Below, piece after piece: positions 7,765-58,100 of a DNA stretch of 64,000 bases (position 1 is the first letter of the stretch; each line of letters opens with the position of its first letter). The stretch spans positions 44,106 through 108,105 of the forward strand of contig CAJINV010000021.1 of assembly GCA_905178155.1 (NCBI GenBank), in the 5' to 3' direction. Source of the stretch: Amoebophrya sp. A120. Its lineage: Eukaryota > Protista > Dinoflagellata. Both the position numbers and the translations under genes were made by a program. The notes under the pieces are model-generated. The model saw only the letters and a program-made list of their open reading frames with translations. It ran no database searches and had not been told where the DNA came from.

Positions 7765-8017
7765 TACGAATTGCAAATATGTTTGGGTCTGAAAGATTGC
7801 CACATTTGTCATGCTTGTCTGACATGACTCGGAACTCTGTCATGCGTAGGTGCAAAAAGATCGATTTGTCTGTGATGCAAAAGCGCAGTATGCCATGCGG
7901 AATACGCTACACATAGCAGCTCAAAAACTTGTCATGCTTGGCCACGTATGACAGTGCGCCCAGTATTCCCTGGTTTGCATCACAAGTTTCCAGACCCAGA
8001 CATTTTTGCATTTGATA
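7765..8017. mobile_element. Introner family A (TIR TATCAAATGCAAAAATGTCTGGGTCTGG)
   Basis: TIRs, left one degenerate; TSD TCACC/TCACC; lies just before the duplicated HIT start. Confidence 0.85.
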
Positions 8018-9035
8018 TCACCACCATGCCGACGATTTTTGACAAGATTCTGGATAAGGAGATTCTTTCTTTGGTTGCTTTGCAACTTCACCCTTCGCGT
8101 CAGCGAGGTGTGGGCAGAGCGACGTATATTGGTACTTGGGCTTACCGTCGCCTTGTGTTGATGCCTGCGGCGCTGTTTTTGTTTTTGTAAGCCTCCATGT
8201 CTTGCTTTCTGTGATCTATCGGTCGCAGGTAGTTGCAATGCAAATAGAACTGAGTCAGTCCTACGCATAACTTGTGTTTCGGGCAAGCGCACACGTATTG
8301 TACTTATTTTCATGCAAGGGCTAGGGCAGGACATTACCATTAGCGCGTTTTTTGATGGAGCTCGTCCTGCTTCTTACTTTCCGAGGTTTTGTGCGTCATT
8401 CGCTTTTATTTGAGATCACGTCTACTTGTCGGAAGATCGCAAAAAAAGACAAAAGTTTTCGTCGATCAAGAGACTCGTTGCCCTGGTGTGCTCCACGTGC
8501 CGAGAACAACTGGGAGCCCAGATCTAGCTTCGATCAATATTTTCGCGATTGGAAATGCTCATAATTTCATTTTCGTTATATTGGAAAACGAAAAGCCTCT
8601 AGTGAAGTAGAAGTTGTACAGATATGCCCAAGCCAGTGCTTCACAATCGCTCGAGTCATCTTCTGCAGGCGGCCTCACTAGGCAAAGGTGTCGAGAGTAG
8701 TAGCATCAAGAAATATTTGAGCTGTGTTTCATCTCTTCCTTCTATTGATAAAGCAGCGATTGCCCTGCCTGCAGTTGTTGTGGAAAAACGCTTTGGCGCA
8801 TTTCTTTATTTGCCTCGCGCAGCCAGCAGCTTGGCCACCATACATACCTGCGTACATGGGTTGCCAGCACCGGTGCAACTCCTGGAGCGGCAAGAAACCA
8901 CAGCGCGAGGGACTGTATTTAGGTTTCCTCGTTGTATTTTTGTAAATACAGCGAAACAGCACACGATCACGACGCGCAGCCGCTTTTTCACCACCATGCC
9001 GACGATTTTTGACAAGATTCTGGATAAGGAGATTC
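8018..9035 (+). repeat. 48-bp direct repeat (8018..8065 = 8988..9035) containing the HIT start codon
   Basis: TCACCACCATGCCGACGATTTTTGACAAGATTCTGGATAAGGAGATTC occurs twice, 970 bp apart. Confidence 0.95.
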
Positions 9036-9606
9036 CTTCCGAGAAGGTGTACGAGGACGACCAAGTTTACGCCTTCAAGGACATCAGCCCGGTATGGAAT
9101 ATACGTTGATTTTTTGTCATCTCATCAGTCGTGGCCACTCAGCATACGGATGAGCATGTGCATGATCTTTTTCCTGTATTACTCCGTGACGCAGGAGCAG
9201 GTAGTTGTGGGTATATTAGTTGAACGAACCCTGTGTTAGTGTTTGGCTGTGCAACATGGATCACAAACGAATCCAACACAAATTCCAATTATTATCCTCG
9301 ATTTGGAGCTGCATCAACCATTATCTACTTCTGCGAAGTAGAATCCCCTCACCACCACAGCAAGCGCCGGTGCATGTGCTCGTGATCCCAAAAGTGCGGG
9401 ATATTCCGCGCATCTCGGAAGCCCGCGAAGACCACAAAGCCGTACTTGGTCATCTATTCTACGTGGCAGGAAAGATCGGGCGAGAGCTCTGTGGGGAGAA
9501 GGGGTTCCGGATCGCGGTCAACGACGGAGACAACGGCGGACAAACGGTGTATCATTTGCACCTGCACGTGCTGGGCAACCGGCCCATGACCTGGCCGCCA
9601 GGGTGA
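8996..9606 (+). CDS. HINT: Histidine triad nucleotide-binding protein (HINT family); join(8996..9091,9361..9606), 113 aa
   Basis: MPTIFDKILDKEIPSEKVYEDD..AFKDISP|QAPVHVLVIPK...GQTVYHLHLHVLGNRPMTWPPG; HxHxH triad; canonical intron 9092..9360. Confidence 0.95.
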
Positions 9607-10112: not shown

Positions 10113-12653
10113 ATGGCACCCATTCTCTCTCCTCAGACGCCTCATGGTTTTTGCTCTGTTGCATTGCTTTTGCGCGGTGTTTTGCTCTTGCTTCCGAGGA
10201 CAGTCCTTGCAGAAGCCGTGATCGCGGTGCCCGAGAAAGAGGAGCTACACAGAGCAAACCAGGCAGCTCCTCCTGCAGTGCGACCCGGAGGAATTTCGGT
10301 GGGCGATGCGCGGGAATTTTTCCAGACGGATTTGAAATCCCTCGTCTCTTTTCGCGTTTTACCGAAGCCAGGACGATCTTCTCCTTCTCAAGTTGTACGC
10401 ACTTCAGAGCGGGGGCCTGAGGAGCCACAAGAAGACGATGATGTCGTGAAACGTGGCTTGAGGAAGAAGGTGGAAATCCTCGATTTCTACCCGATTCGCA
10501 GCGACAAGCAGTTCAACGACACTTTGGATTTTGCGGCAAAACTGATTTACTTCGAAAACCGCTATGGCGGCGTGACCGGGGTCTTGCGAACCGATGTGGA
10601 AGATGAGGACCTGCGGCTGGTGAAAAACGACCAGGGAGGCGACCGCATGTCTCGCAGTCTGACTCTAACCTTGAACCTACGCTGAGTAAAAACCGGTACC
10701 CATAAAAGTACCCCATAATTTTGATTGAACTAGATCTAGTGGTGCCATCCATGTGCTGCAGGAGGGGTCTGCTGTGGCATTTTTGCATGAGCGGCGTTCT
10801 ACTCTGGTGGTGTTTGAGACGACGATGAACTTCTTGTCGTGTCTCCTAAGTAAGCAGGTGTCAAGATTCGACAATAGTACCTGAGTATACATATCATAAG
10901 ACTGGGCTAAATGCTTGGCACCAGAAACTTGTGGATTTGCATTTGTCTTCAGGCAATACTCCCACTTGAACGTTGGGTCCGGTACGTAGTTTTTACTCAG
11001 GATAGAACCCGCACGCCTGGTTTTCGCACAGCTACGCGTTCGGCTACACGGTGCATTTGCAGCGCTGGGTCAGACGGTGGGTGGCAACGGCAGTGAAGGC
11101 CTATAAGGTAGACAACTTGAAAAGTGCCGGCGCCGAGGACAGCAGCACGGAGACCAGAAGCTCTTCACGAAGGAGCACAACGAGCTCGACTCAGTCGAAG
11201 ACGCAAGAACGAGAAGCAATGAAAGCGTTTCTGCATGATCACAAAGACGCGATGTCTTTCGCGATGGCCGAAGTGGGGATACTGTCCGGAACCGGGCTAG
11301 CTTTGTGGCACACAGTGTGGAACGAAATGCTGCTGCCCAAGCTGGAGGAAGGAATTCTCGCGGAATCTGAAAAGTCCGTTTCAATATCGAACGACGGCGC
11401 AGAGGTTCTTGAGGCCACGACTGGAAGTGAAAGCGAAGAAGCAACGACAGTGGTAGCAGATGTTCAACAAGTAGTCCGTGCAGATGATGCAGTACAACTG
11501 CAAGAAGCAGAAACCCCCTCAAATAAGAACTCAAACAATTTCCAGCTTTTCGGGTTCGACCTCGACCCCACCGTGTATGCGCAGAACGCAGCAAATTTGG
11601 TGCAACGGGGCGCTTTTCAGCTTGGAGAGGGATTGCGGACGCAACTGCAGAAGCCTACCGGTACAAAAGCGCAACAGGGAAAAGACCAGGACCATTCTGT
11701 CTCTAGCAGTGCGGGAAGAGGTGAAAGTCAGTCTGGTGTTCATCCAGCACCATCTACCAGTAGCGCGAGGACCTCCACGCAGTTTTTGATATTGCCCTAC
11801 GTGTACAAGTTTGTGCAGGGCCTCTCAGTCTGGTTGAACCGGCAGCGGGTGCGGAATTCTATTCGGCACGCAAAAATGAGTGTGAAGAGCAGGATGTTGC
11901 TGAACAAAAGCGGTGCTGGACAAAACTATCGGGAAGATGATGGTGCTACTTTTCCTCCTTCCAACCTCGGAGGAACCTCCAGCATGGTCAGAACGACTGC
12001 ACCGACGGCAATATCTTCCGCACCAGACCCGATAAATTTCTTCGACATGAAGAACATAGACGCGCCCTTTGATGGGGACGGAGGTACGTCGGCGACTGAC
12101 GGATCTCCACTTGAAGGTGCCGGACCGGGTCGGGCGGGCGCTGTGGCTACCTCCATTGACGTTGAGCCGGAAGTCGAAGCACAGGATAAAGAGCCAAGGG
12201 TACAGAACAAGGAACGCGTATCAGCGAGCCCTGCTGCCCGTCCACAACTATCAGCAAATACTACTTTCCACTTGCTGATCGACGACGCGTACCATTCGGA
12301 CGAATCGATACTGCACACGTTTGAAGTTTTCCACCCCTTCTTGCAGCGCCCGTGGACGTTCTTCATCGAAGACAACTGTGGGGCGGTCTACCCGCTGGCC
12401 GATCGCCTTTTCGACAAAGCGCGGCCCTACGACGGCCAGGATACCGTGGAGCTGTTTTATCCTCGGAAAGACACTTATTCGTGAATGCTGTAGAAGTCCT
12501 GAGCAGCTCAACTTCCGACTTGACTGGGAACAAGTTCTTGGCTTGCGGCGTTTGCATTTTACGAAGTGTGTTTCCTGGGATAGATATGACACGAGAAGCG
12601 CAATGAAAACAGCTGCCCGGAACGACGATGCATGGAAAGTGCGTTGTTCATGA
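10113..12653 (+). CDS. Signal-anchored class I SAM-dependent methyltransferase-like protein
   Basis: Removing element 10678..11004 plus TSD fuses ORFs 10113 and 11051 (LTLNPHAWFSHSYAFGY). Motifs EVGILSGTGLALW, FGFDLDP, LLIDDAYH...FIED. The C-terminus depends on element 12458..12582 (stop at 12653 under the +5 rule). Confidence 0.7.
10678..11004. mobile_element. Introner family B (TIR TATCCTGAGTAAAAAC)
   Basis: TACGCTGAGTAAAAAC...GTTTTTACTCAGGATA; TSD GAACC/GAACC; in-frame join. Confidence 0.9.
12458..12582. mobile_element. Short degenerate introner
   Basis: TATCCTCGGAAAGACAC...GTGTGTTTCCTGGGATA; TSD not recognisable. Confidence 0.55.
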
Positions 12654-16300: not shown

Positions 16301-17702
16301 GTTTTGACAAAGGATAAAAAACGGATAAGGTGGAATACAGAACGCACGAGTACCACTCGCTTTACGGGAAGTATCTACCGGAGATTATGTTTGCGAGCGG
16401 CGAGGTATCACACAGAAAAAAGCTGGCAGGTCATATTTGTAATGCAAGAATACATAGACAAGAAAACTTGTCATGGGTGGCCCCATAGCATGCTGCTTCG
16501 GATATACAGTACAGAGCTTTTTGTGTATTTATTTTTGCATATACAAATATGCCCTGCCAGCTTTTTTCTGTGTGATACGAGGAGGACTCGACGCGCAAAC
16601 GGCGTCCGCTGCTGGAAATCGGGTTTGGTTGCACGATGTGGTACGGACCGGGCGCGAGCGCAGACCTGTGGGTCAAACTGGGCTTCAAAAACGTCCATTT
16701 TCTGGAGCAGGATTTGAAGTGTGTCGAAAAGCATCAGAAGAAGATCGCGAGCACCGGTGGCTACTTCGTGCACATTGGGGACCAGGAGGACGTTCTCCGG
16801 TTGGAAGGTTTGAAGCAAGCGCTTCACTACGAGGCTGAGGTGATCATCGACGATGGGGGGCACCGGAACAACCAAATGCTGACGTCCTTCCACCACCTGT
16901 GGCCCATCGTGCGGAACAACGGGCTGTATTTTATCGAGGACTGGGCCGAGACGGCGTACTACCCCGGGTACTTGGACGCGCCGCCCCGTGTATTCTGAGT
17001 AAAAACATCCCCACACCAGAGTCAAGTTAGGAATCTAGCAAGACAAATCCACACGTTTTGGGAGCCACGCATGAGAAGTTGCAGTCCGTAGTGTAGTGCA
17101 TGTTAGCAAGGACGGCCGCATCACAAATTCTTCTGCTTAACCTGTTTACAGCATTACAAATTCCAAAACGCGATTGGAAATGCCTCTCATGGCGATGCGC
17201 ATTACAAATCTTCCTTTAATCGCAAATCTGCATGACAACCATGGGGTGGGGACGTTTTTACTCAGGATACCGGGTCACACGCCCCGGGAACGAAACCGCG
17301 GGCACCGCGCAGTTCGCGTTTGCGATGTTCCTGCGGATATCAAATGCAAAAGTGTCTGGGTCTGGAGCAAAGCGACTTGTCATGCTAAATCTGAATCATG
17401 TGGAAATCTGTGTTGCATGATTGCCAAAAGCTGTCTACTTTTGACCTGATCGAGAGGCAGTTTCTCATGCAGGATAGGCATGATAGAACTGTCACAGAAT
17501 CTGTCATGCTATGTCCTACATACCAGACCTCATGGCTCATGGAAACTCTGCGTGACAAGTCTGGCACTCTTCCAGACCCAGACACTTTTGCAGTTGATAG
17601 CGGAACCTGTTCTGCGAGACTTTGCAGACGCCGTGCTTCGGCGATTTCGCTTTCATGGAGGTGCAGTTTAACCATGTGGTGTTTCGGAAACGCAAGCTGT
17701 AG
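13372..17702 (+). CDS. Signal-anchored protein with C-terminal class I SAM-dependent O-methyltransferase (MycE-like) domain; 5 insertions
   Basis: After element removal: TQTDKVEYRTHEYHSLYGKYL...LLEIGFGCTMWYGPGASADLW...IGDQEDV...EVIIDDGGHRNNQMLTSFHHLWP...GLYFIED...VFRKRKL*. The link to exon 1 across the 14058..15270 element is less certain. Confidence 0.8.
14058..15270. mobile_element. 1.2-kb non-autonomous TIR element with internal ~147-bp hairpin
   Basis: TGGTAACCAAATGCGTGCGCG / CGCGCACGCACTTGGTTACCA (21 bp, 1 mismatch); no TSD; palindrome at 14995..15141. Confidence 0.8.
15960..16316. mobile_element. Introner, family B-related, degenerate
   Basis: TATCCTCAGCAAAAAC...GTTTTGACAAAGGATA; flanks ACAGA/AAAAA; removal gives Q-T-D-K. 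Confidence 0.75.
16406..16577. mobile_element. Introner family D (TIR TATCACACAGAAAAAAGCTGGCAGG)
   Basis: 25-bp perfect TIR; TSD CGAGG/CGAGG. Confidence 0.95.
16991..17269. mobile_element. Introner family B
   Basis: TATTCTGAGTAAAAACATCCCCAC...GTGGGGACGTTTTTACTCAGGATA; TSD CCGTG/CCGGG. Confidence 0.9.
17338..17599. mobile_element. Introner family A
   Basis: TIRs; TSD GCGGA/GCGGA; join F-L-R-N-L-F. Confidence 0.95.
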
Positions 17703-18750: not shown

Positions 18751-21700
18751 ATGTTGTTGAGACTCGTTTATTGTAAAAATTTCCTGCTAAACAACTTCTT
18801 TCTCGCTTGGTTCACTACATCTTTAAGTTTGAGTGGATTTTTCACTTCTACAGTGCGCGGAGATGAAGAAACTTTGCCGTCGTGGTCCTCACGACCTCCA
18901 GGTGAAGCAGAGGCAGAGCCAGAGGAAGATGAAATTGCAAGTGCTCCACCTCAGCAGTCAACCTGCTTGTTGCAGATGTACCGGCCGCGAAGAACTACAG
19001 GTGATGATAGACTCGAAATGGTCCAACGGCAGACGGCAGACAGCGAAGAGATTGCTCGTAGTTCCATCGATTACGGAAAAATTGGGGTCAAGGACGTCCT
19101 TGCGGAGCTGTGGCAGACGGAATGTAAGACGCGAGGAACATTACCATCGAGAACGGCAAGTGGCAGCACACGTGCGGAGGAAGATTCGCATGATTTTCTG
19201 CTCGGCGAACTACAAGGTGCTGGAGCAGTACGCGGTCGGGAAAAAAGTCGTGAAAAGACGTATAACCTGCTCAGCTGTTACAATCTCAAACGTTGCAATA
19301 GAATCTGGAATTTGTGTTGCATGATGAGCATGACAGACTCGCACAGCGTTCCACCTTTTGCAATACATAACTCGTCAGATAATTCTAGTGCGGATTGGGC
19401 CTCCAGAACTTGTCATGCGCAATCCTGTGGGAGTAGGCTAGGTCATGCACTCTTGTATCACAGATTGCCATATTCTATTGTAACGTTTGAGATTGTAACA
19501 GCTGAGCGCGTTATAAGACGAAGAACTTGTTCGACTGGCTTTGCAGCGCCGCGACGTCCGACATGCTGCGCAGGCACGTGGAAGAAAGTGGAAACAAGCC
19601 GGCTTTTTCTGCGAAACAACAGCTGTTTCCACGGTTTCTCCACCTGTCCGTGCTGATCAACTATCATTACGCTGAGGTGAAGAACAACTACTCCTACTTT
19701 TTCAACGCGCTTTTCGACTACTATCCTGTGCAAACGTAATTGTATCGTTGGCTTGCTACGTATTCATATTGTAGTCGTGCATAGATAAAGACAGGCGTGG
19801 TCATGGTCTGATGCTGATTTATGTGCCTGAATCTGCATGTAGAAATTAGAAAAGTTTCGTTTGTTTGTCTTACTCATACTGAAAAAAATTTCATATGCAC
19901 ATAGAGTGTTGCTGATGCAATTACTTTTTGCTGCAAAAGTGCATAGTTGCCATCCAAGAACAACCCCCCAATCGCCGCTCTACTCTTACGGCCGCTTCCT
20001 GGCGTTCGTCCGCTATTTAGGTGGGGGGAACCGGTGCAATAACTTGCTGTATCTGGACACAGACGCGGTAGTTTTGAAGCCGTGGCTTATGCATTGCAAA
20101 CATGTAGTGGTCTGGCTTTGGGTCGGGAAAGGAAGTCGCTCCTTGATCTTACTCATCTATTTTGCGAACACATGATGACACCTATTCGTCTTGCGCTCTT
20201 CTACGCAGTCGAAGGCGTTTAAAAAACTTTGTTAGCTATGCTTGTTTGGTGCCCTACTACTTTTATTCGGTGTCTCTCCAAAGCTTTCGAGTGTCTCTCT
20301 GACCCAGCACAACGGAGCATCACAAGCTTCGAGACCCAAACCAGCGCTCATTTGCCATTGATAGGGCTCTCGGTCGAACAGCTGGCGGCGGTCATAACGG
20401 GGAACGATGCGGGAGCCCCGACAACGAACGCTAGAAGCAATGACGCGTGGCAGATCGCCTACACGCCCGAATCAAACGACCAATCGCGGGCCAAGCACGA
20501 CCGCACGCTGCCTCAGGCCGGTGTTTTGTTACTCAGGCAGCGGAACTCGCGCGAGCAGGAGTGGATCGTGGATTTTTTTTCTCGTCTCTTCCTGGCCGAG
20601 GGAGACCTCTGCAGTGTAGGAATGGAAGACAAGAAACGCAGCACTTCTACTTCTGCGGCGCCGACGAGAGCTAGTTTAACACCAACAGCTCCAGAGGACC
20701 ACCACGACGTGGACGTGGAAGATAAACGAGAAGGCGCACTAAAAACAGGAATCATGAAGATCGCGCGTGAGGTCGTAGTTTTGCCTAGCGGTGTTGAAGC
20801 CGCACAAATGGAAATAACGGGCAAAGAATTATCTGCATCAAGATCAACCTCAATATCAGCACCGTCAACATCTACTTCACCATCTTCTTCTCTGCAGCAC
20901 AGCAACGACCCCTTCGGTAGTCGCGTGCACGACCAGGCTTGTTTGCACCATGCGATTACTTCCAAATTCCTCAACAGCAACGAGAAGGCGGTGATGATCA
21001 ATCCGAGTAACTGGTTCCAGCACACCAGCGCGCGCACGGGAATGATCACAACGCTGGAGGACGAGAACAGCGTCTGCCTCTATCGGTCCCCGTTCGTCCT
21101 CCATTTGAGCGGGAGGCAAGGCGCGTACCGCGAGCGCGTGTTTGAAACCTACGCGAAGTTTCCCGGGGAGATACTTGGAGCGTTCGCTGCTGAGCATTGT
21201 AGCAACAATGGACGAGGATTTTTTCGTCGCGACAGCGGCAAACGCGAGGAAATAAAGCCGCCAGAGGTGGTCGTGGAGGAGGAGGTCGTAATATTGCACA
21301 GCACTTCCTCTCCTGAGAAATTATCCAATGTTCTTGACTTCAAAAGCACGAGCATGATGCCAGCAGCCGGATCTTCGCGCCTTTATTCCGCGGCAGAGAC
21401 TTTGATCGATGACGTACTCATCCCCGCGCACGGTTTCACCTTTCTCCCCGGAAGATCACGAACCAGCGGAGCAACCGCGGCCGCGCTGCACATAAGTGCC
21501 GCATTGGACGAGAAGACACTGGCTCCTCCGGTTCGGCATAAAAGATATGCCACTAAAAAGCCGCCGGAAGAGCAAGAGATAAAGCAGTACGGAACAAAAA
21601 TAAATGAAAAGACCAGCTCTAGTACTGTCGCCGATCGCATTTTGCTTAGCCAGCAGCTGCTGAGCGCGAAGGAAATAGAAAAACCTCCCGCGAGAATTAT

Positions 21701-24303
21701 GCACCTCGCGACGGACCGGCTGACGTCGCGGCTGCCACTGCACGCCTTGCCTTGGTACGATGCCCCTTTGGCGATCATTGTGCCCCAGACCTACTTCCAT
21801 GCCGGCAATAATCTCACTTCAGAGCAGAAGCTCCTTCCGCTGCATTTGGTCCAGACGGTGCAAATGCTGGACGCGGCGGCGAGTCTGCGATTATTCTTCT
21901 TGCGCAACACGGCAGTGCTGGTACAACAAGAAACGGCTTCTGATACGACACAACTTCCAAGTACCATCTCAGATGAGAATACTAGCGACGACCCTGACGG
22001 GATCAAGAACATTACTGGCCGGGGGTACGACTGGCCGTTTTCTCGCCCGGTGGTGCGGTATGTGGACGATCACAAAGCGTTGCAGCTGGTCGAGTTCAAC
22101 GACTTGAGCTGTGATCCTCTGCACCGAGGTTTGTTCGGCCGTGCGGAGATCTCCGACGAGTATGAAAGTGCAGGAAAATAAAACTTGAGTCCTCATCTCC
22201 CCGTTAAAGAACCTCATTTGAAGTAGTAGTGCTAGTGCCACAAAACAGCAACGGAAAATAAAATAGGGGAGCTGCATGCACGACCCCTTGCTTTTTGGAT
22301 AACATTCGCAAGAACCAACATGATACCACGCTCAAACAGATCCAAGTAAGTAGCAGAGGAACAACAATTGCTATGTGTGCATGACAATGACAAATAATGA
22401 GGGCGGAGTTGTGGAGTTGAAGTTGTGCACTCCTCGTCGCATATCGACCTGCAATCCTTCATGCGGGGACCGATGATGCGTGCGGGGTTTCGGGTCGGCC
22501 TGGACACCCTGCCGCACTTCTTTTTCGAGCACACAGAAAATGGAAATAACCACAGTCAAGAACTACATCAAAAAGAAAAACACTTTTCTCCCGATAGTCA
22601 CGACATGGGCCCGAAGAGTAAAAATCCTGCCGCGAGCTCAACATCACCTACGTGGAACAAGATGTTTTATCACCACAACCGGACTTCCAAACTGCGGCAC
22701 AAGCACGTGGCGGAGCACCACCGGCACCACGTCATGATATCCCTAGTAAATGCGCCGCCCAAGGAGAGGATCCAACAGGAAAAGCTGTTTGAGTTTCCGT
22801 TTCCCTTTGAATTGGGGTTTAACAGCAACCAGGCGCTGTCCAACGGACTGCTGTCGACGGCCGGTATGCGAACCTTTTTGGTGTTTCTGCCTGCGCGGAA
22901 GGTGGGAAGAAGGAAATTTTTGGGAGGAGAAGTACTATGGGGCAGCTCATCGGGGGGACGAACAACTTCTACAGCGACCAGCAGGAAGGAAAACGAAAAT
23001 GAAGATTTTCAGGAACAATATACAGTGGATGCCGCCATCGTAGATTCAGCTCTACTGCACATCCTATGCAAAAAAAAACGTGTTTTCTGTACAGTTACAC
23101 ACTAGGCGGCGACGAGGCGTGTTGCAGCAGGCCGCGCAAGACTCATGCCGGGTCTGCTAAGAAGCCTCGTTTCTTTATTCGTGTTTTCCTTTATAATCTT
23201 GGCATTGCACTGGCACTCTTGATCATGCCGAACCAAACGGGGTAGTTGTGCATGTGTCACAGCTGCAAATGTGATGTGACTGTAGCGCTTTACTTTTCTG
23301 TTGGGATACCTCAAAGAGCTGGCTCAGTATGGATATCGCGCCGCCGATACTGGGCGGAAAAATCCCACCTTTCCATATTGAAAACGCATCCGTCTGAGAA
23401 TTTGTGATGCAGATTTGTGACTACAAATCCTGTGTGTCTTGCAAGAAGGCAAGCCCAGAGAGTCCGCCCCATTATGCAGGCGGTTTGTGATGCTGCTCGG
23501 CTTACAGCATAGACATTTACCATCCTAGGCACCTAAGTCAATTCCTCCCAACTCAGGCGTGGCATATGCCTGCAGTCCTCTACTGCAAGACAAATCCGAT
23601 CTGTGTACGGAAATCCAGCATCAGAAACTTCGTTTGGATATGGGGAGGGGGCATTTTTCCTTCTGATACGCGAGGTCGATGGCGCGCGCTTCGCAAGCGA
23701 CGCGTTGCCGGAGCCACTGGGCTATCCTGTGCAAAAGTATCGTACTCGTAGTAATCGCAATCATGCATTACAAATCTCCTTCCTAACCTAAATCCGCATT
23801 ACAAATTCCATTTTTCATGCTGAGGGAATTTGTCATGCGATTTATACTAGTACGATGCTTTTGCATTTCATATGGGCCGGCTTTTTGTGGTGGTGCAGCT
23901 CGAGAACGAGAAGGAGGTGAGCGAAGGCACCAGCACTGACGGACCGGGAACGTCGAGAGAAACAGGAGGCGGCACTGTGGAACGGGAAGCTGCTGTGCCT
24001 GAAGTGTGGAGCATTTTTGATGTTGAAGAGGCGACCACTTCCGGTAGTACGGAGGAAACACAAGTCCATACAGAGAAGAACGATCGGCTCCTTCCAGTTC
24101 CCCTCTCGGAGCATATCAGAGCTGCCATGTTCGATTGTGAGGCCGGAGAAAAGGCGGCGCAACGGCTTGGATCCTCACCAGTGAAGACGGGAGCGGGTGT
24201 AGTACACAGAAATACGCTCGTGTACCAGTGCTTTATGTTTCCGGAGTCACTCATTCCGGATTACGTACAGCCGACCCGAGATAGGTTTCTCTCGGAGGCG
24301 TGA
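18751..24303 (+). CDS. Signal-anchored glycosyltransferase, GT34/GMA12-MNN10-like; 7 insertions
   Basis: LLYLDTDAVVLKP (DxD), AGVLLLR, DQACL, PFVLHLSG. Six of the seven joins are in frame when element plus 5 nt is removed; the boundary at 23060 is uncertain. Confidence 0.65.
19261..19515. mobile_element. Introner family F
   Basis: ~42-bp TIR TATAAC..GCTCAGCTGTTACAATCTCAAACGTT.CAATAG; TSD AGACG/AGACG. Confidence 0.95.
19722..19945. mobile_element. Introner family C, degenerate
   Basis: TATCCTGTGCAAACGTAATTG...CAATTACTTTTTGC...GCATA; join D-Y-H-P-R. Confidence 0.65.
20088..20270. mobile_element. Degenerate introner
   Basis: Starts TATGCATTGCAAA; TSD TGGCT/TGTCT; join P-W-L-S-K-A-F. Confidence 0.55.
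22161..22443. mobile_element. Degenerate introner
   Basis: TATG...CATA ends; TSD ACGAG/TCGAC; joins ORF 20229 to ORF 22425 in frame (S-D-D-L-Q-S-F). Confidence 0.55.
23060..23308. mobile_element. Degenerate introner, boundaries approximate
   Basis: CATCCTATGCAAAA...TTTTCTGTTGGGATA; the frame fits only if the element is removed without the extra 5 nt. Confidence 0.5.
23348..23668. mobile_element. Introner family E (GGAAAAATCCCCCTCCCCATAT)
   Basis: TIRs; TSD GCCGA/CGCGA; join A-A-E-V-D-G. Confidence 0.85.
23723..23872. mobile_element. Introner family C (TIR TATCCTGTGCAAAAGTATCGTAC)
   Basis: TSD TGGGC/TGGGC; join E-P-L-G-R-L-F. Confidence 0.9.
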
Positions 24304-27883: not shown

Positions 27884-27994
27884 CAAGTAGGAAGATGAAT
27901 TTGCTGTGGACCACAGGACTAAGTACTTGATCAAAAGATTACAAGGAATCCAAACCCGTAACCCTTACCCGGATTAGATACAAAGAAAAGTATA

Positions 27995-43700: not shown

Positions 43701-45736
43701 TACGCCACGAGATAGAAGGAATACAACACCTTCCGGTTGTAGTACAGCGACGAAAGAACACGCGCAATAAAAATCAAGATCAACAATCAATGAAAAAAAG
43801 GTACTGCGCATGCCGGATGGCAGGAGACAGCGAAGACACGTGCAACGATGATTCACGGAAGATGAGCACAAAGATGCGGTTGCGTCTGGCGGTATGGTGG
43901 AACATCAAGATTTATGGCACCTTTGACGCCCGCTCCGATGTTGTACTTAGATGTTGATGTTGGGTGGAACTGCATGTCCTCCTTCCTTTGCACGGGCGAA
44001 TGGTGGTTGTGTAGTCTTCATGGCACCACGCGCGTTTTCTTGTTTTCTATGTTCCCATGGGGTCTTTTTTTCGATGTATGAGTTGAGACATCGGTGCGGA
44101 CCGATAAGCGTGTTGTAGCTGCATTTTCCATCCATACTCCCGTACCGCAACCTTTGTCGCCGTGGTGTACGCAGAAAACGTCCGCGCCTACACAAGCAGG
44201 TCGTTCGACGAGCCCTTTTTTGTGGAGATGTTCAAGAACACGGCAATGCAGAAGGCCATCGCAATCGCACAGATTGCGCTCTTATCCTGCGCAAAGTTTT
44301 TAGTCGTACTCGGGTGGCTTTGACTTTGAATCGCAATAATTTTGCATGGGAATAATAAATCAATGCGTAGTTTTCACTCTCTCCGGTTGTACTATCTGCA
44401 TAAGTTACAGATTCCGTTTGCTAGTGCGAGAAAGGAATTTTTGCAAGGGATAACTCTACTTCGTCATTTTCATTCCCGTATCAACCGCAAAAATGTCTGG
44501 GTCTGGAAGAGTGCGCGATTTGTCATGCAGCTTTTCCATGACCCAGGAAGCCTGGAATGCAGGACCTAGCATGACAGATTCTGTGCAATCTCTCTCATGC
44601 CTATCCTGCATGAGAAAATCCCTCCCGACTTGGTCAAAACTGGACGACTTTTGGTAATCACGCAACACAGATTTTTGCATGCTCGAGATTTAGCATGACA
44701 AGTTGCATTCTTCCAGACCCAGACACTTTTACATTTGATATCCCGGACTCTCGGACGCCATTTTCGAGCTCGAGGGCGTGAGGATGTCGACTTACTTATC
44801 CCGTGTTAAAGCGTCGCCACCCCATGATGCTTCGTCTCATGCAGGTTTGCATGCTGAGGCTCAGCAAGCTTGCCATGCAAAGACCCACAGCGGCCACTTT
44901 GCATTCGTACTTACTTTGGTATGTGTCATGATGCTCCAAGCAGGATAAGCATAAGGTAGTTGATGCTCCATTAGGCTTACAGTGAAGATGCCGCTCCATT
45001 GGCCAGCTAGTCATAGCCATGGCAATATTAATTGCCCAAGATTTTTGTCATGCGTCGGAAGATGACAGAATACCCAGCTTGATGACTCTGGGGTGGGTAG
45101 TAAGTACGTTTTGCACGGGATATCAAGAAGATATGGAAGGGGAGACAGGCGTTGGGTACGCGTTCGCCTTCGGATCTGCTGCGGCCTGTATTCTTATACG
45201 CGTTCACGTGGTTGTTTTTCGTCCGCATACATCAAATAGTCGCCCTCTTGATTTCTCAGTTGTACCCACTATTCTGTGGTCGCCGTGGGCATTTAGGTGG
45301 AAAAGTAGCACCAGTAAATTCTCAAATATAACAACGCCAGAAAAAAAAATGCAATCTTTCGAAAGAAAATGAAATACACAAATACCATTCGTTTTCAGGT
45401 GTCCTGCTGTGTGAGCTGTACAAATTTGTCGTGAAGGGCCAAATCCGGGAGTTCGCCCGGCAACTGAAGGAGCAGCAGGAGGCCGAGGAGGCGGAGCGCC
45501 AGAGGCTGATCGCCGCCAAGGAGCCGCTTCCGGTCTCCCTCTCCAAGGGCGGCAGCAAGGAGCTGCTCGGGAGCAAGGGCGGAAGCAAGGACAAGAAGAC
45601 GTCAAAGGACAACGGACCGCCCAAGGAGCAGGAGGTGACCAAGCCGCCCGTGATGGTCGCGGAGAACGGTACCGGCGGACCGGGGACGGAGCTCACCGAG
45701 GTCGCGGTCGAAGTGCCGGCGGATAGCACGGCATAA
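34713..45736 (+). CDS. ATP4: P-type II cation ATPase, ATP4/ENA-like Na+ pump; ~18 exons
   Basis: LTGE, AAIPEGIP, DKTGTLTEGKMT, KGAP, MITGD, FARAKPEDK, TGDGVNDAPAL, ARTATF..VYAENVRAYTSRSF. Canonical introns: 35299..35531, 35887..36108, 36515..36725, 37285..38482, 38976..39188, 39454..39581, ~43483..43800, 45188..45398, plus 9 introners. The gene symbol is by motif similarity only. Confidence 0.9.
36828..37092. mobile_element. Introner family A
   Basis: TSD ACACG/ACACC; join C-S-N-T-S-L. Confidence 0.9.
37515..38430. mobile_element. 916-bp insertion flanked by a 76/84-bp duplication of splice acceptor plus exon start
   Basis: 37439..37514 matches 38431..38514; internal tandem GCGAAAAAAAGCT.CAAAAC repeats and their inverse. 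Confidence 0.75.
38536..38797. mobile_element. Introner family A
   Basis: TSD CGAAG/CGAAG; join G-T-K-Y-V-V-I-V-K-G-A-P. Confidence 0.95.
39659..42244. mobile_element. Introner (~209 bp core) expanded to 2586 bp by a nested insertion
   Basis: TATCGCACGAAAAAAGTGTTTCACTGT...ACAGTGAAGCAGTTTTTTCTCGGGACA; TSD AGTAA/AGTAA; join T-S-K-V-K-V-F-A-R. Confidence 0.85.
39833..42194 (+). mobile_element. Nested retroposed insertion starting with a dinoflagellate spliced-leader relic; 15-bp TSD
   Basis: TACATTTTTTGCATC at 39818..39832 and 42195..42209; the insert starts TTTTGGCTCAAG. Confidence 0.8.
42342..42605. mobile_element. Introner family A inside the TGDGVND motif
   Basis: TSD AGGGG/AGGGG. Confidence 0.95.
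43164..43438. mobile_element. Introner, family B-related, degenerate
   Basis: CCCACGAGGACC...GGTCGTCGTGGG inverted match; flanks TGCAT/GGCAG; in-frame join. Confidence 0.6.
43893..44136. mobile_element. Degenerate introner with no AG acceptor
   Basis: TATGGTGGAA...TTCCATCCATA; join L-A-R-T-A-T-F. Confidence 0.65.
44283..44452. mobile_element. Introner family C-related
   Basis: TATCCTGCGCAAAG...TTTTGCAAGGGATA; TSD GCTCT/ACTCT. Confidence 0.85.
44479..44740. mobile_element. Introner family A
   Basis: TSD TCCCG/TCCCG; join F-I-P-G-L. Confidence 0.95.
44797..45122. mobile_element. Introner, family B-related
   Basis: TATCCCGTG...CACGGGATA; flanks TTACT/TCAAG. Confidence 0.75.
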
Positions 45737-47744: not shown

Positions 47745-48007
47745 TATCAAATCTAAAAATGTCTGGGTCTGGAAGATTGCCAGGTTTGTCATGCATATTT
47801 TGAATGACCCATGATGTCTGTGATGCATGCCCTAGCATCACAGATTTTTAGAGGACCTTGTGATGCCTCTACTGCATGACAAATGCCCTCTCCGCGTAGC
47901 ACAAACTGGAGTCCTTTTGCTGGTCATGCAATACAAATTTTTTTAGAATCCAGAAACAGCATTACAGGTTTAGAATGTTCCAGACCCAGACATTTTTACA
48001 TTTGATA
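47745..48007. mobile_element. Introner family A (5' UTR or upstream of the ATG)
   Basis: TSD TCGGG/TCGGG. Confidence 0.95.
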
Positions 48008-48038
48008 TCGGGAAGAACACGACAAAACCCGAAAGAAA

Positions 48039-50368
48039 ATGTTCTCCGTGACTAGCAAACTCGCTCTTGCCACCACCAGCTCCCTCGCGGTGCTTTCTGC
48101 TGCGGCCCCGGTTTTCGAGGATACGCCTTTGACGACGGAATTGTGGGCGTTGTGCAGCTATGCATTGCAAATATGTCTGGGTCTGGAAGGATGTAACTTG
48201 TGATGCTGCATTTGCATGCTACAAAAATCTGTATTGCATGAAGTGCAAAAGAGGTCCAGTTTTTGCCATGGCGAGAGGGCATTTCTCATGCGGTATAGGC
48301 ATCAGGAAGCCCTCGCAAAATCAGTGATGCTGGGGCATGCATCACAGACGTCAGGAATCATGCAAAATGTGCATGACAAACCTTGCATCCTTCCAGACCC
48401 AGACATTTTTACACTTGATAGCAGCAAGAATGAGGACCGTACGGACGAGCAAATGGAGGCGTTTCTGTACCAGAACCCGGACCTAGCACTATTGAAAGGA
48501 AAAATCCCCCCTCCCCATATCGAAAACGAAATTTGTGATGCAGTATTTGAGTACACAAATCGCATTTGTCTTGCTGGAGAGGACTGCAGACCCATATCAA
48601 GCCTGAATAGAGAGGCTGTGACTTAGGCGCTTAGCATGAAAAGCGTCCGCGATGTTGGCTCAACAGCATGACAAACCGGCTCCATAATGGGACGGAAGCT
48701 GCTGCCCTTGTCTTCTTGCAACACACACGTGATTTGTGACCTCAAATCAGCAACACAAATTTTCGAAAACCTACCTCTTCAATATGGGGAGGGGGGATGT
48801 TTCCTTGCGATAAGCACTGGCGCGCAGTGCGGACAAGCGTGGCGGGCTTTGGTGGGCATGGGAGTATCGAAATAGATAAACCTTTCGTCAAGAACAACAT
48901 TTATTATTCCGGTTGGTGTGCTGCATGCATCACAGAGTGCGTTGGTGCTATCTATGACGCGAAGGTCATCTATTTTTCTTGCAAGGCAAAGCAAATTCCT
49001 AGCTTCGTGTAGTCCTCGAATTTGGGATCCATGTACTTATCAATATCAAAAATCTTCAGGTACAAGAACAGCTTTGCACTGGCAGCGTTAAAAGCTTATG
49101 GCGCGGAGCCCCTTAGCACGGAGGAAGACGACGATGGGAACACACCGTAAAAATTATTATGCGGAGTTTGTAATGCTGATGCTTTATTTTCTGCACGGAA
49201 CGAAACAGAAACTTACACGATTGGCAGAATCATGAAGGACGTTCGATGCGGAACTTCTTCGTAAAAGATGAAGAAAATAAATATAATATCAGGCAGCAAA
49301 TGTGCAGCGGCGAAGAGTGTGCGAACTTGTTGTCATCGGTTGCAGACATCGAGAAAGGGATTTTGGACAGAAAAGCCGAGCGGGAAAAGCTATCAGAACG
49401 GAAAGTTGTCATTGACTAAACGGAACATCAAATGCGTCCTGTTGCTTGCCATGCGAAACTACACAACCAAGAACAACGTGCACAATTTGCAAGTCAGCTA
49501 TCTTAACCGAAATGTCAGATGACAGTACATCGCATCACAAACTGCCCAGAATCAGGCGCTCCCAGCTCGTCGTGCCCTAAGCTCATCAGCGGTTCCTCTT
49601 GTGTCGAGGCCTTTCCTCGGAGGTTGGTTTGGGCTTGGGGCGCCAGGCGAATGGACGGCTTCGAGGCTACGTTGTGATCGACAAACTGAGATCGACGATA
49701 ATAGCCTTGTTGCTGGTCCTGTGCCGGTCGCGGGGCATGTTCGGGTGTTCCGGGCAGAGCTTAGTGCAACCCTCGGACCCCGCACCCCCCCGGGCTTGAG
49801 TTGCGCAGTCTTCTAAGCAGTACGCATTTCTGTTATTTAGCATGAGAAATAATTTTCTGGATGATAGCAAAACGATCAGGCCGCAATGGACGAGGATGAA
49901 GATGATGACGACTTGGATGGCGATGACGAGGATACGGTATGAAAATTTGTGATGCGGGTAGCCGATCAACCTATCGCAGTCGTTTTTGTGTTGATGCATT
50001 GCCGCTATTAAGAAAATTTGCATGACAAACTATCAGGGGCGCATGATGGGGAGCAAGGGGTCTGCTACGCCGCCGGGTATGAAGGGACATGTCAGCTGGA
50101 CGAAAAGGTTGTTTGTGTCACATTTAGATGTTGTCAAGAAGCATGATCGTACGTATTTTGCATAGATGCATTTAAATAGCAAGTTATATATGAGTACGTG
50201 TCTAGTCTTCCACCAGGACGACCAGCGTCGCCGCATGCTGTAGTGCAATCAATGACAGCAAATTTGAATTATTTGACGCAAATTATCAGCCTTTTTCGTT
50301 TTGTTTGGATAATCAACTCGAAGATTCCGGACATCACAACGGATGACGATGAGGACGAGGACTTGTAA
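48039..50368 (+). CDS. Small secretory-pathway ankyrin-like protein with acidic tail ending DEDL
   Basis: MFSVTSKLALATTSSLAVLSAA|APVFEDTPLTTELWALC...NPDLALARSADKRGGLWWAWEYKN..YGA..DDDGNTPQQMC...DDDEDEDL*. Three introners plus GT-AG introns 48864..49059, 49147..49292 and 49937..50323. Confidence 0.75.
48159..48420. mobile_element. Introner family A, opposite orientation to the 47745 copy
   Basis: TSD GCAGC/GCAGC. Confidence 0.95.
48490..48812. mobile_element. Introner family E
   Basis: TSD AGCAC/AGCAC. Confidence 0.95.
49391..49866. mobile_element. Degenerate introner (476 bp) with probable nested ~260-bp GC-rich insert
   Basis: TATCAGAACGGAAAGTTGTC...AATTTTCTGGATGATA; join R-E-K-N-D-Q-A-A-M. 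Confidence 0.6.
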
Positions 50369-52141: not shown

Positions 52142-55100
52142 ATGCTTCTGGACCACCTGGACAGTTTTTTTTCCACCTGGACGCACGCTCCAGCCCACGC
52201 GGACGAACAGGAATTTCTTTCCAAGCTGGTGGATAGCCACTACGGCTTGCCCTCTCATGTGGACACGGAAAAGCACCTCGGATCCGCGCTCTCCGTGCTG
52301 GCGCAGCATTCCGAACACGCGAACGAGAAGGCAGCGTTGGATATCCTGTGCAAAAACGTCCCCACCCCATAGTCAAGATGGGAAATCTGCTAGACAAATC
52401 AACAAGCTTTGGCTGTTGCGCATGACAAGTTTGGCCTCGTAGTGCGATCCTGTTATTAAGCTAGTTCAGCAGCGTCACAGGTCCAGTCTGTCATGCTGCT
52501 GCGAGCATGACAAATCTCAAAGCGCCACTAGAAAACGCCTCTCATGTGTCTCCGCATGAGAAACATTCTAAGCATGCAGATTTGCATTACAACTCTGGGG
52601 TGTGGACGTTTTTAAATAGGATATTGGATGGGGTTTACTCCCTTGCCGCGAAGAAATGGCTCCCAAAGTTGCCGCTCGGGGACGAATATCAAATGCAAAT
52701 ACGTTTGGGTCTGGAGCATTCTAAACTTGTGATGCTGTCTCTGGATTCTGAAAAAAATTGTATTGCATGACCAGCAACAAGAGGACTCCAGTTTGTGCTA
52801 CACGGAGAGGGCATTTCTCATGCTGTAGAGGTATCGCAAAGCGCTCTAAAAATCTGTGATGCTACGGTATGCATCACAGACGTCATGGGTCATGGAAAAT
52901 ATGCATGACAAATCTAGAAATCTTCCAGACCCAGACACTTTCGCATTTGATAACGAAGCGCCGGTCGACCCGTTGCAGCTGCAGCCGAGTTTGAACCTGC
53001 CACCAGAGCAGGAACAGAACGTGTTGAGGTGAGATAATGCAATTTAGCGAGATCATGCATATACTTTAAAATTTTTTTTTGTTGCATGAGTTTCGGCCTG
53101 GTTTTGTAGACTAACATAAAAGAGTAGAAGATCACGAGCCATTTGTTCCGTCACCATTCACCCGTACTACACAGGCACACGCTGAACGAGGTGCTCGGGC
53201 AGAAAGTCGCGATTGCATCCAAGGATTTGCATCAGCTGGACAAGATGCGAGAAATTCTTGAGAAGCCTCAAGCCGCAGACCAGGCCTGGCAGGAGGCATT
53301 GAAGGTGAGATTGATGCTGTACAACTCTCATTGATTCGGATGCTGCACTTGTAGCGACATCATGTTGTATGTCGTTGTGCATAGTTGTTTGTGGATGGTG
53401 AAAAAATTGTGCTGGAAGCTCGCCCCTGAAAATTGCGACAAACATTATAGATCATAAATGCGGAAAATCGTTATCTTTTGTAAAACCCCCCACATCAACG
53501 GCATTTATTCAGGTCCGCGTCGACGATCTCCAAAATGTCGGCGGAACCAACGCCCACACGACCCGCCTTTTTGAGGCGCAAGCAGGTCGGGCCCCGCGAA
53601 ATAGTGCACTGGGCATGGCGCCCTGGCCCGACCCGCCTCCCGGCCACCCAAGGCTGATCGCGAAGCCCCTTGCCGCGGACCTGTCCTCTCCGTCTTGGGG
53701 CTTGCCGGCAACGTTTCCCTGAGTGCATGCTCGGACACGTTGGCGAGAAAAAAAACGCATGCTGGGGATTTCGGCCCTAAGCGGCTATCTACACACTTTC
53801 GGCCACAAAAACGAGCACCAAAAGCCCCTCGAAAAAGTACGCATGCACGACCTCCAGGGAAACGGCGACGCCGGGTCCCCAGAAGTTGGGCGCGGCCTTC
53901 AAAGCCCGGGGGCCACCTGGGCCAGGGAACGGGGCCAAACCGAGACCGCAGACGGGCGCGCGCGGCCCTCCTCAAACGCTTTGCCGCCGCTTCATGTGCC
54001 GGTCCGTGTGGGCGCTCCCACTTCTGTGCCGGCCGTTTCGCATTTCCCATGCGGCCGCACGCGAGCGGGCGGCGCGGGTGCGTCTTTTTGCGTGGCCCCT
54101 TGGCCTGCGCGCCCGTACGGGCCAAGGGGCGAGCCCCCGGCAGGATGGCGCGGCCCAAGGCGCTCGGGGTTTTTCGGTTCGAAGCGCGCCGTGGGTTTCC
54201 GGGCCGCTGCATCTTGCGAGGCCCGCGCCCAAAAAGGTGGCGCCGGCCTGTTGCTTGGCAAGCATGTGGGCACATTGCCGGGGGGGGCTTAGCAGTTTGG
54301 CGAAATTGCGAAGCACACAGGGGGGCTGCTTCCGGTTGCTGTATTACGCAAGGGGGGTGGGCCATCAGCATGGGGCGCAAAAAGATCAGTCTGAAAAGGC
54401 TCCAACCTGCTCTATGCATTCGGCGCCAGCCTCCCGGCCGGGTTTTGTTGTTGGGACAGACGCAAGCCCTTGCCCCTCTCTGCCCGCGGCTAGGGGGCGG
54501 CCGCCCGAGGATGCTCGCGCCCCTTATAGAAGTCCTATCGGGCCACCAGCTTCCGTGAGCTCTAGCGCGGCCACCAACTGGCTACGGAACGCAAATCGAG
54601 GCGGGTGGGCATAGTTCGGCGCCGCGCTTCTTCTTTGTTTTCCTGGGCAAATATTGCCCATGCGCGACAGCGTGGCGCCCTACCTTCGCAAGTAACGACA
54701 GGGCCGCCACGGGAATGCGCCGCGCGGGACCGAGGTCAAGCAGCTCGGCTGACGACTCAAGGCCGCCGCCCACAGTACAACACGCGGCACAGCAGGTGGG
54801 GCTTTAGATCGCTAAGAGAGGCGCGGCGCCCCGTCCGAGGTAGCAGCGCAGCGCATGCTTTACCAGCACCGTGCCCGCGACCAAGTAAGCGTGAGCTGTG
54901 TGGCGGGGCCGCGTTGCAGTAGCCCACACGCGGATGGGGCCGAAATGGGTACACACATCCACAAGGCCTGCTGCGTCGTCAGCTAGTGCGCTAACTTTTG
55001 TGCGCCGCCATCTCGCTAGCTTCTTTGCATGCATAACAGAGTCAGAGACTATCCCTGAAGGAAGTCCGCTGGCGGATACCATCCGGGCGGGTTGTGCAGC

Positions 55101-58100
55101 CGGCGGCCGTGTTGTTGTATGAGTTCAAAAAAAAAATTTTGATTTGGGGAAAACCGGGGTAGTGGGGACAGTTTTACCTAACGTATATTCAGGTCCGCGT
55201 CGACGATCTCCAAAATGTCGGCGGAACCAACGCCCACACGACCCATAACTCGACGAGCATCTCGGCTAGCCGCATAGAGTCCGAAGTCCCCTCCACCTCC
55301 GTCGCTGCTACTCAAATATCCCCAGATAACTGGCAATCCGGCGGGTCGAGCTCTTCCACAGCAACGCACCACTACGGAAGCAGTAGTTCCGCGGATAATT
55401 CCGCTAAACTGAGTGAGGATATCACAGAAAAAACAAAAAGCTTTTATACTTATGTTCACGAAATTGAGTGTGAAGCCGCGTGCATGAGGAATAAACCCAC
55501 ACAAGAGGGAAGTTTGTATTGCGTCGCATCATGATGCAGCATGTTCGACATAATTTGTCTTGCGACAGCGCAAGCAGGAGCTATTAATCAAAAATCGTAA
55601 AAAATGCAAAACGCTTTTTGATTTCGTTTCATAGAGGAGTTGTTCGTCTGGAAGGCGTCGCAGCACCAGGTGGGAACGAACCAACAGGAGCCGTATGTCG
55701 TGGTTCGGGATCGGGACGGGATTTCCCTGCAACTTCTCCCCATGCGCTCCGCGCTGGCGTTTGGGGACAATCGGGAATTGTGGCACCGGGACGCGGAGGG
55801 CCACATTTGGACGCCGGACAAGTCCGCCGTGGTCGACGTCGACTCTAGCGGGAAAGTACTGCTGAAATCGACGCAGGGGCTGTTGAGTACGGGGGCCAGA
55901 AACGCGGAACTGTGGAAATTAGGGGACGATGGTATATATTAGAATAATGCAGCATCAAGTTCATTTCAAATTCAATTGAATACAGGCACGTTTGGTTTGC
56001 ATGCTCTTGCAATGCGACGGTGACCACCGTGAGTCAACCTCGTAATTTGAATTCGATCGGATGTCTACAGTGGGTCGTTTTCAGCCCGCCTGCAGCACGC
56101 TAGTACAAGCAACTGTATAGATACGACAGAAGCATGATGAATCGCCAAACACGACCTGTAAAACAACGAACTCCAAAAGGTACCATGACCTCGGTTCACG
56201 GCAAGGAATACCTTCAATTTCCCGGCGTCGTGGACAGTTTCGTGGACACGCGGTTAATCGACCCGGTGAACATCTCTTATGGCATTCTCAAACGTTACAT
56301 TCTCAACTGTTACATGGATTTGTGATGCAAGAATGGGAAAAGTGAAAGGGGGGGCATTGCGCGTCTTGCATGACAGATTTGGCACAGATTGTGAGCCTGT
56401 TTGGCCCTTCCAGAATTTGTCATGCAGAGCAGCTTGATCGTGTAGATGATAATGGTAGTTTTGCATGACAAATCATGTAACAGTTGAGAATGTAACATTT
56501 GAGAACTCCATATCTCTTCCAACATTCCCGACACTCCCGAGCACCCCGCCTCCTTTGCCATCGACGACAACGTGCACCACAGCTGGGTCGCGCCGCAGGC
56601 GGGCGGGGAGCACCTCCCGCTGGCCGGGAAGGCCGGGTTGATACACCGGAACCACCCGTACTTGGTTGTCGACGCGGGGGAAACGAAATACATCGAATCC
56701 CTACAGTTGGATTTCACCGAGCCACCCAAGGAATTCCTGGTCAGTGGCAGCTCCGACGGGGGACACAGCTGGCAGAAGGTGTTTGGGACGGACTTGAACA
56801 CAGCGTACTTATTGACTTTTTCGTTAAAAGTTGGTCAGTTGCTGTTTTGCATTCTGAAGTTATTTTCACGCTTGGTGTGCCTTAATATGATAGAACTAGA
56901 AGTGCACTGATCTAGTACGCATAAGGTGAGCCATGGACATAAAAATTTTTGACAAATGAAAACGAACAAACTCTAAACACTACAGGTTCAACCTGAAGGT
57001 CCCGATCCACGACAAATTTTCGCACTTGAAAATCACTTTTCTCGAGCCGCTCGGGCAGGCCGTGCCGCACGTCTCCGGGGGCCAGTTCGGGGTCCGCCAC
57101 GTGGCGGTGTACGGTAAGGAGATGGAGCCGGCGTTCGTGGGCGGCTACCCCATTTTTGGCCCGGTGGGGCACTTCAAGTTCGAACACCTGGCCGGCCCCT
57201 TACCCGACGCGGAGAAAATTGACAAGTTGTTGGATCTGGCGAAGCAGTTGGACGTCGCGAATTCGAAGCTTGCCTTGGCGGAGGAAAGGTACGAAGCTGC
57301 GGTGGACCAGCGGAGCTTCATGGGCCTAAACGCCGCCCACGAGAGTTCTGGCGGCGGGGGGTTTTTCGGAACACAATCGATGAACTACGGAAACAGCAGT
57401 AGTAGCAGTACCTCAGGAGCTGGTGCCGGCGGCGGTTCGTTTTTCGGGCGCGCGTTCGGTTACGGCGGTGGGGAACAAGTACAAGACAACAGCGACACAG
57501 GAGCTGCTCAACAGCAGTACCAATCGGATGAACAAATTATGGACACCAGCAGTAGTACCAATCCTTCGATGCTGCAGACGATGGAAATGAGTATGAAACC
57601 TCTGTTCTACGGCATGCTGGCCTTCTGTATCGAAGTGAAAGATCCTCCCTCCCCATATCAAGAAAACGGAAATTTGTGATGCTGCTTTGTGGTCACGAAT
57701 CCCGGTGTCATGCTAGAAGGGAAGAGATGCAGACTGTAGTGCTAGCTGGCGCAGGAACGCCATGCGTCTTCAGCATGACAGGAAGCAACTGGAAATGGGA
57801 AACAGCATGACAAATTTCTTCCAAACGAGGGAACAGCTGCGTCTCTTAGCCTTCTAGCAATACAAGTCGATTCATGTACTCAAATACAGCAACACAAATT
57901 CAAATTTCGTTTTCGATTTGGGGAGGGGTGATTTTTCCTCATAATATCCTGCGGTTTGATATCCTCGAAGACAGCGGAGGGGAAGATCACGACGACAAGG
58001 GACGCGGCGGGTGTGAGCAGAGCCGGCGCCGCGGGGGTCGAAGGTCTGAGCAGGTCGAGTTTAAGGTCGTCTTGTTCATCTTCCGTTGGAGCTGCGCGTA

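Follow-up and report, generated by a model that had tools for sequence, protein, structure and literature searches.

The 64,000-nucleotide stretch of the dinoflagellate Amoebophrya sp. A120 analyzed here (the window; contig CAJINV010000021.1, positions 44,106 to 108,105, of assembly GCA_905178155.1) contains a host P-type ATPase gene, 34713..45733 on the forward strand, and families of short intron-forming elements (introners) with TAT...ATA ends. The ATPase gene has 18 coding segments and 17 introns, and its exon at 42607-43158 matches with 100% identity a 1,196-residue P-type ATPase named Amoebophrya sp. A120. Protein mapping divides the introns into eight of GT-AG type, none containing the 8-letter word GCATNACA (GCAT[G/C/T]ACA), and nine TAT...ATA introners, seven with the word and two without. 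The family A introner at 47745..48007, a 263 bp element with terminal inverted repeats (TIRs) and a 5-bp target site duplication (TSD), illustrates the arrangement. It contains six exact copies, three on the reverse strand (47787..47794, 47819..47826 and 47859..47866) and three on the forward strand (47835..47842, 47874..47881 and 47959..47966). The first copy lies at position 43 counted from the left element end and the second follows it by 32 bp on the same strand; the last lies 41 bp before the right element end, and a variant at 47928 precedes it by 31 bp. A preliminary description of this DNA listed the same six copies on both strands, all of which are exact, and reported the word in families B, C, E and F. 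That recurrence also holds, with four exact copies in the family B introner at 52342..52623, three each in the family C introners at 23723..23872 and 29040..29198, two in the family E introner at 48490..48812 and four in the family F introner at 56278..56512; the coordinates cited at the time are element starts, not word positions.

The wider sample comprises 146 loci from one related assembly, pulled by TIR pattern without the word in a scan of 14 of 64 parts. With overlaps removed (11 loci dropped as redundant and four trimmed) these loci total 596 kb, and family A is over-sampled among them because the TIR pattern was used for fetching. Elements are defined by TAY...RTA ends, an exact 5-bp duplication and a TIR score of at least 8, lower scores being excluded; at this threshold the finder returns 372 real matches versus 10 in a shifted-TSD decoy. 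De-duplication of the window and related loci leaves 371 elements, in 14 families of 3–174 copies plus 11 singletons. An end-agnostic scan of the window identifies 19 candidates that combine TIRs with an exact 5-bp duplication; TAY...RTA ends are found in 17. When no TSD requirement is imposed, 230 of 271 strong TIR pairs have a 5-bp TSD, one has an 8-bp TSD and none has a 6-bp TSD. The word carriers are TAT...ATA introners with TIRs and 5-bp target duplications. They agree with the introners described for A120, whose inverted repeats start with TAT followed by seven variable bases and an A-run and which have short direct repeats (PMC7789003); removal from mRNA is non-canonical, and the families are dispersed. 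They also resemble miniature inverted-repeat transposable elements in their TIRs, fixed-length TSD, short length and insertion in either orientation. The window contains no Rfam matches, and viral contigs contain no family A matches.

Enrichment of the word in introners is confirmed. The window holds 90 copies over both strands, where 100 dinucleotide shuffles give a mean of 8.2 and a maximum of 15, and the G and C forms rank first and third among its over-represented 8-mers (42 versus 3.6 and 34 versus 3.4 expected under an order-3 model). Density is 13.5 copies per kb in full elements (56 in 4,151 bp), 10.2 per kb in partial element copies (20 in 1,969 bp) and 0.24 per kb in the remainder of the window (14 in 57,880 bp); the related loci give 12.4 per kb inside elements and 0.24 per kb outside. 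The comparison of introners with other DNA proposed in the preliminary description thus yields about 13 versus 0.24 copies per kb, and the possibility it allowed for, no excess over background, does not apply. Elements contain 1,143 copies, where an order-3 model trained on their own sequence predicts 102, and the word is carried by 351 of the 360 members of the 14 families and by eight of the 11 singletons. Its rarity in exons, noted earlier by eye, is borne out by zero copies in 3,588 bp of mapped ATPase exons and two copies in the 10,853 bp of eight long open reading frames (ORFs). Other transcript-contig pieces (3,168 bp) and GT-AG-type introns (2,734 bp) are likewise free of it. The fifth base (N) is G in 53% of copies, C in 29%, T in 17% and A in 1%, within a wider consensus of W-GCAT-(G/C/T)-ACA-R-R-t in which variants are tolerated at positions 4 and 7.

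The families that share this word were described as having unrelated TIRs, which is correct only in part. All consensus ends begin with TAT, which the finder largely imposes, and most families have an A-run at end positions 11–15 (A at position 13 in 26 of 28 consensus ends), weak in F-like families; C-rich inner TIRs appear by eye to be common to several families. With the word and 30 nt per end masked, three of 91 family pairs (numbered 3-8, 4-5 and 4-10) still share interior sequence by the similarity cut-off, which leaves 11 unlinked groups. The other 88 pairs fall below the cut-off, contrary to the recent common ancestry that the preliminary description named as a refuting alternative. 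The shared ends point to one mobilizing chemistry; resemblance between interiors is mostly gone. Families 3 and 8 (example 48490-48812) have shared interior sequence and different inner TIRs, which suggests a modular exchange of ends and interiors.

The word is under selection. In family A, identity to the consensus is 89% at its seven fixed positions, 62% at other interior columns and 60% at N, and a check for mixed orientation in the family A alignment leaves this result unchanged. Trees of seven families show the seven positions changing at 0.29–0.32 of the interior rate on internal branches and 0.46–0.47 on terminal branches, while N changes at 0.97 and 1.04 of that rate, respectively. The word is therefore conserved beyond its neighbors, at 0.3–0.5 of the interior rate, and the neutral decay considered in the preliminary description is not observed. 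The seven positions are less constrained on terminal branches (Fisher p=0.0007 for family A and 0.004 for six other families pooled), and the inner TIR shows the same pattern, which fits selection at mobilization. The core rate on short branches is ~0.02 per site, a similar order to TSD mismatches, which is compatible with neutrality and indecisive. A quartile trend that hinted at neutral decay after insertion was dropped as a binning artefact on the basis of a split-half control. The number of words does not track TSD mismatches (3.1, 2.9 and 2.85 copies at 0, 1 and 2 mismatches).

The arrangement of the copies is also regular. The check for periodic spacing suggested earlier reveals a same-strand step of 31–33 bp. 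The 52 exact consensus sites include nine such pairs (P=0.0002 once any 3-bp window is allowed for), and the 40 exact sites left when each group is represented by one family include eight (P=0.0002, same correction). With two variant words added, the step is present in nine of the 11 groups (0 of 5,000 shuffles). Within the window, the family B introner at 16991..17269 (one mismatch in its TSD) has six sites, all forward, at spacings of 31, 49, 33, 48 and 31 bp; the six sites of the family E introner at 57628..57946 form three pairs of 31, 32 and 32 bp; the family E introner at 48490 has, besides its exact copies, three variants, with 33- and 32-bp pairs; and 23765 and 23796 in the family C introner at 23723 are 31 bp apart. 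Spacers between the paired sites look unrelated by eye, and within families 79–96% of copies keep the pair distance within 1 bp of the mode. Outermost inward-facing sites lie 33–34, 43–45 or 53–56 bp from the element end, a period of 10–10.5. At one end of family A the outermost site is at 34 bp in 47 copies and 43 bp in 63, and at one end of family E it is at 45 bp in four copies and 56 bp in 10, so that the end variants differ by 9 and 11 bp. A constant step with unrelated spacers, together with preferred distances from the end, points to a site in double-stranded DNA. Three helical turns between like sites would suit a protein array on one face of the duplex.

Transcript joints for window positions 36001-56000 (15 of 883 joints) address how these elements are spliced; families B (52342), C, E and F lie beyond direct RNA joints, and splicing of C, E and F is judged by open frames across the junction. 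The family A introners at 36828..37092, 38536..38797 (five exact copies) and 44479..44740 (three exact copies) are skipped in transcript contigs by 270, 267 and 267 nt, exactly the element plus one 5-nt TSD, in two contig runs presumed to be RNA; the skips are absent in a DNA-like run. At the introner at 36822-37097 the final base distinguishes the two TSD copies, and it is the downstream copy that survives in the transcript, which puts the 5’ cut one base or more ahead of TAT. Two non-canonical TAT...ATA introns, 43892..44140 and 44279..44453, are skipped in transcript contigs and the protein model although neither contains the word even at one mismatch. An interrupted introner with two exact copies (39660..42244, bounds approximate) has ~2.3 kb of other sequence inside it and is removed together with this insert as a single 2,591-nt intron in the protein model. 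The insert (~39860-42140) is covered by one presumed-RNA contig and has ~3x background depth in the DNA-like run. Insertion direction, with gene direction inferred from a codon model, is available for 222 of the 371 insertions, and every family with at least five direction calls lies both ways in coding insertions. Most families have sites on both strands, which the preliminary description took as making the word orientation-proof. This is not general, as family B has six consensus sites all on one strand and its coding insertions are split 10 versus 7 by orientation.

The remaining elements of the window follow the same pattern. Family A introners lie at 7765..8017 (five exact copies), 17338..17599 (two), 29880..30146 (four), 42342..42605 (four), 48159..48420 (three; inverted relative to 47745) and 52687..52952 (four). 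Diverged family B-like introners are found at 43164..43437 (two exact copies; bounds approximate) and 44796..45126 (one; spliced, with B-like ends), and a diverged family C-like introner at 29659..29843 has two. A family E copy with an eroded left end (23351..23669, bounds approximate) and an F-like introner (19261..19515) have two exact copies each, and an introner of a small family with three copies found (16406..16577) has one. Exact copies are absent from a TAC...ATA element with an exact 5-bp TSD (10678..11004), from a diverged introner with an exact TSD (31673..31927; four one-mismatch variants) and from a singleton with an exact TSD (55420..55633; three one-mismatch variants). Five further copies at 48813-50315 lie beyond any delimitable element, in a stretch mostly skipped by a transcript contig that probably consists of old introners. 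Long GC-rich palindromes at 15001-15136 and 14074-14136 (67-nt and 28-nt arms) mark a GC-rich stretch without the word. Near-exact direct duplications of 52–63 nt occur 1.0–1.7 kb apart at 8018-8069/8988-9039, 37452-37514/38450-38514 and 53506-53564/55186-55244; all three cover an exon start, the second sits in a 1,198-nt ATPase intron, and a different type of insertion may have left them as long target duplications. At 29200-31472, introners interrupt fragments of a DUF2252-like gene, whose family is described from bacteria.

The word is likely a double-stranded binding site for one shared mobilizing protein, either a transposase or its cofactor. A DDE transposase acting in trans, or a cofactor working with it, would load several sites on one helix face, using sites three turns apart and set in about 10-bp steps from the element end. 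The bound protein would pair two TAT-N7-AAA ends and insert the element with a 5-bp stagger. Any short DNA bearing these ends and the array would be movable, which would explain the many families with different inner TIRs and interiors. Copies that lose sites would no longer spread yet could persist as introns, with excision from RNA resting on the paired ends and not on the word. The elements themselves are most likely non-autonomous TIR transposons. The common code for a single mobilizing factor proposed in the preliminary description has indirect support, as all 14 families carry the word, which is conserved beyond its neighbors and helically spaced; the protein was not found.

Several results weigh against this proposal. 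A Pfam scan of 27 ORFs of the window and of 104 of the 310 long ORFs at the related loci detects no transposase, and PMC7789003 likewise found none in A120. The core/interior ratio from split columns stays at 0.31–0.50 in each of the five branch-length classes, with no rise to 1 in the shortest class, coding and non-coding insertions are constrained alike (0.41 versus 0.43, p=0.64, with 32 non-coding calls), and the parsimony change counts take no account of saturation. Three of the 11 singletons have intact TSDs and no exact copy. The end phasing is post hoc, at p about 0.003–0.005 over 19 non-independent family ends, and outward-facing sites lack it (p 0.15–0.33). An opposite-strand spacing of 15–17 bp (P=0.0009, window picked afterwards) failed correction in three of four versions.

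Further searches for the mobilizing protein give an integrase-motif pattern with loose HHCC matches only in 492 ORFs, and no long TAT...ATA element with a transposase is seen among elements up to 15 kb. The 2.3-kb insert of the 39660 introner seemed by eye to contain an integrase-like word, but its seven ORFs have no Pfam hit. In the related assembly, an introner harbors a nested TAT...ATA element of 111 bp (L014:1851-1961) that is nearly palindromic and has a separate 5-bp duplication; it lacks the word and may use a variant site. A C-5 cytosine DNA methylase gene at L015:2624-6079 is relevant if the repeats are methylated.

Other functions for the word can be weighed against the same observations. 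It could be a DNA mark read in any orientation by a host chromatin protein that recruits splicing factors or tags the element for silencing. Such a mark fits the double-stranded, phased and orientation-free behavior as well as a transposase site does, constraint on the word lasts on the shortest terminal branches (ratio 0.37), and among ATPase introns the word occurs in the non-canonical class and not in the GT-AG class. In addition, U1 snRNA went undetected in A120, where no transposase was found either (PMC7789003). This reading is nevertheless fairly unlikely, as abundant transcript contigs show the two word-less introners spliced out, internal branches are the more constrained, and constraint is no greater on coding than on non-coding insertions, a comparison of weak power. 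If the word were instead read on pre-mRNA, an RBFOX-like protein that marks introns for excision would be the natural candidate, and the preliminary description pointed to both an RNA-binding factor and this resemblance. GCATG is the commonest form, and most families would present a site in either orientation. The RBFOX element, however, needs an invariant GCAUG and acts on the sense strand; here the fifth base evolves neutrally, with C or T in 46% of copies. The 31–33 bp step fits duplex geometry, and insertion of one-strand family B both ways, together with splicing of the two word-less introners, makes an obligatory RNA splice signal unlikely. Neither claim is supported, and an RBFOX-like reader is highly improbable. 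A role in splicing at the DNA level, such as a host mark aiding excision, is possible.

Opposite-strand copies could also be kept for stem pairing, in RNA or in a single-stranded DNA intermediate. Predicted folding of the elements at 47745 and 52342 is far more stable than that of shuffles (z -8.1 and -6.3), chiefly through the TIR stem, and the copies at 47819 and 47835 are paired in the predicted structure. Pairing of the variable base is inconsistent over 17 site pairs, the copies compared being related: the outermost family A pair is Watson-Crick in 40 of 173 cases versus 75 expected, and two other site pairs are ~2 SD above expectation. Stem pairing requires neither an identical word in 11 groups nor a same-strand spacing, and it is a very unlikely explanation. 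Lastly, the word might be a functionless remnant of a 32-bp tandem unit in one ancestral element. Ends and a TSD length common to all families make a deep common origin likely, and the three linked family pairs retain interior sequence. A relic should not change more slowly than its neighbors within families, and the observed rates largely refute this reading; the masked interiors of most pairs lack similarity, and the 32-bp distance is kept while the spacers look unrelated. The chance that the word is such a relic is minimal.

Comparison with known systems indicates which part of this arrangement is new. The A120 introners of Farhat et al. 2021 (PMC7789003) have the same ends, direct repeats, non-canonical splicing and many families, and the text of that paper, figures aside, describes no shared internal motif or spacing rule; it states that general transposase-mediated mobilization is ruled out for these introners. 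A120 introner family 38 (Gozashti et al. 2025, PMC12130899) is described as a TIR element with an integrase-like ORF of Copia/Gypsy homology, a 5-bp TSD and TA/TA termini, the latter two as found here. Compared by description only, it differs in its length of ~808 bp and its five copies, and it is an obvious candidate for the source of the mobilizing enzyme. IS3EU/GingerRoot elements also have TA...TA termini and TIRs, but their TSD is usually 6 bp and an internal repeat array is not described in the available text (PMC10045372, PMC6839031). The 5-bp duplication places the A120 elements outside that group.

Precedents for subterminal sites with phasing are Hermes (PMC10368747) and the P element (PMC7776569). 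The subterminal repeats of the hAT transposon Hermes, bound by a BED domain, are described as a short word in both orientations inside the ends, end-asymmetric and dependent on phasing, as here (PMC10368747). Hermes has a 4-bp word and an 8-bp target site, in contrast to the 8–11-bp word and 5-bp TSD of these introners, and unlike in the Hermes description, the 31–33 bp steps run through the whole element and are common to families with different inner TIRs (PMC10368747). Multiple short internal repeats in both orientations, a hAT-type feature, are thus present, and the 8-bp duplication of Hermes is absent. Some hAT subgroups have shorter TSDs. The P element transposase site is described inside the TIR at set end distances (9 and 21 bp spacers), one site per end, with an 8-bp TSD and a THAP transposase (PMC7776569); the introners have 2–7 sites per element. 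A search of the available introner and Amoebophrya literature, including the review PMC11453091 but leaving aside figures, subscription papers and bioRxiv supplements, turned up neither the word nor its constraint or spacing rule. In that literature introners are already known, and the internal word, its constraint and the spacing rule appear to be the new part.

One conserved, phased word across most families implies that one trans-acting factor serves all of them. The word can serve as bait in DNA pull-down experiments and as a search signature for the autonomous element. It also gives a handle on the mobilizing enzyme, and it is a separable cis-part with which transposition and splicing can be distinguished. 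U1 snRNA went undetected in A120 (PMC7789003), and one host-kept protein could conceivably read the phased duplex lattice on tens of thousands of introners, both mobilizing them and flagging their RNA for co-transcriptional excision in place of the missing U1. We consider this double duty decidedly unlikely; if true, it would amount to an intron-definition code written in duplex DNA. More broadly, the arrangement suggests a modular route to mass intron gain, in which the ends and the array are common and the interior is free.

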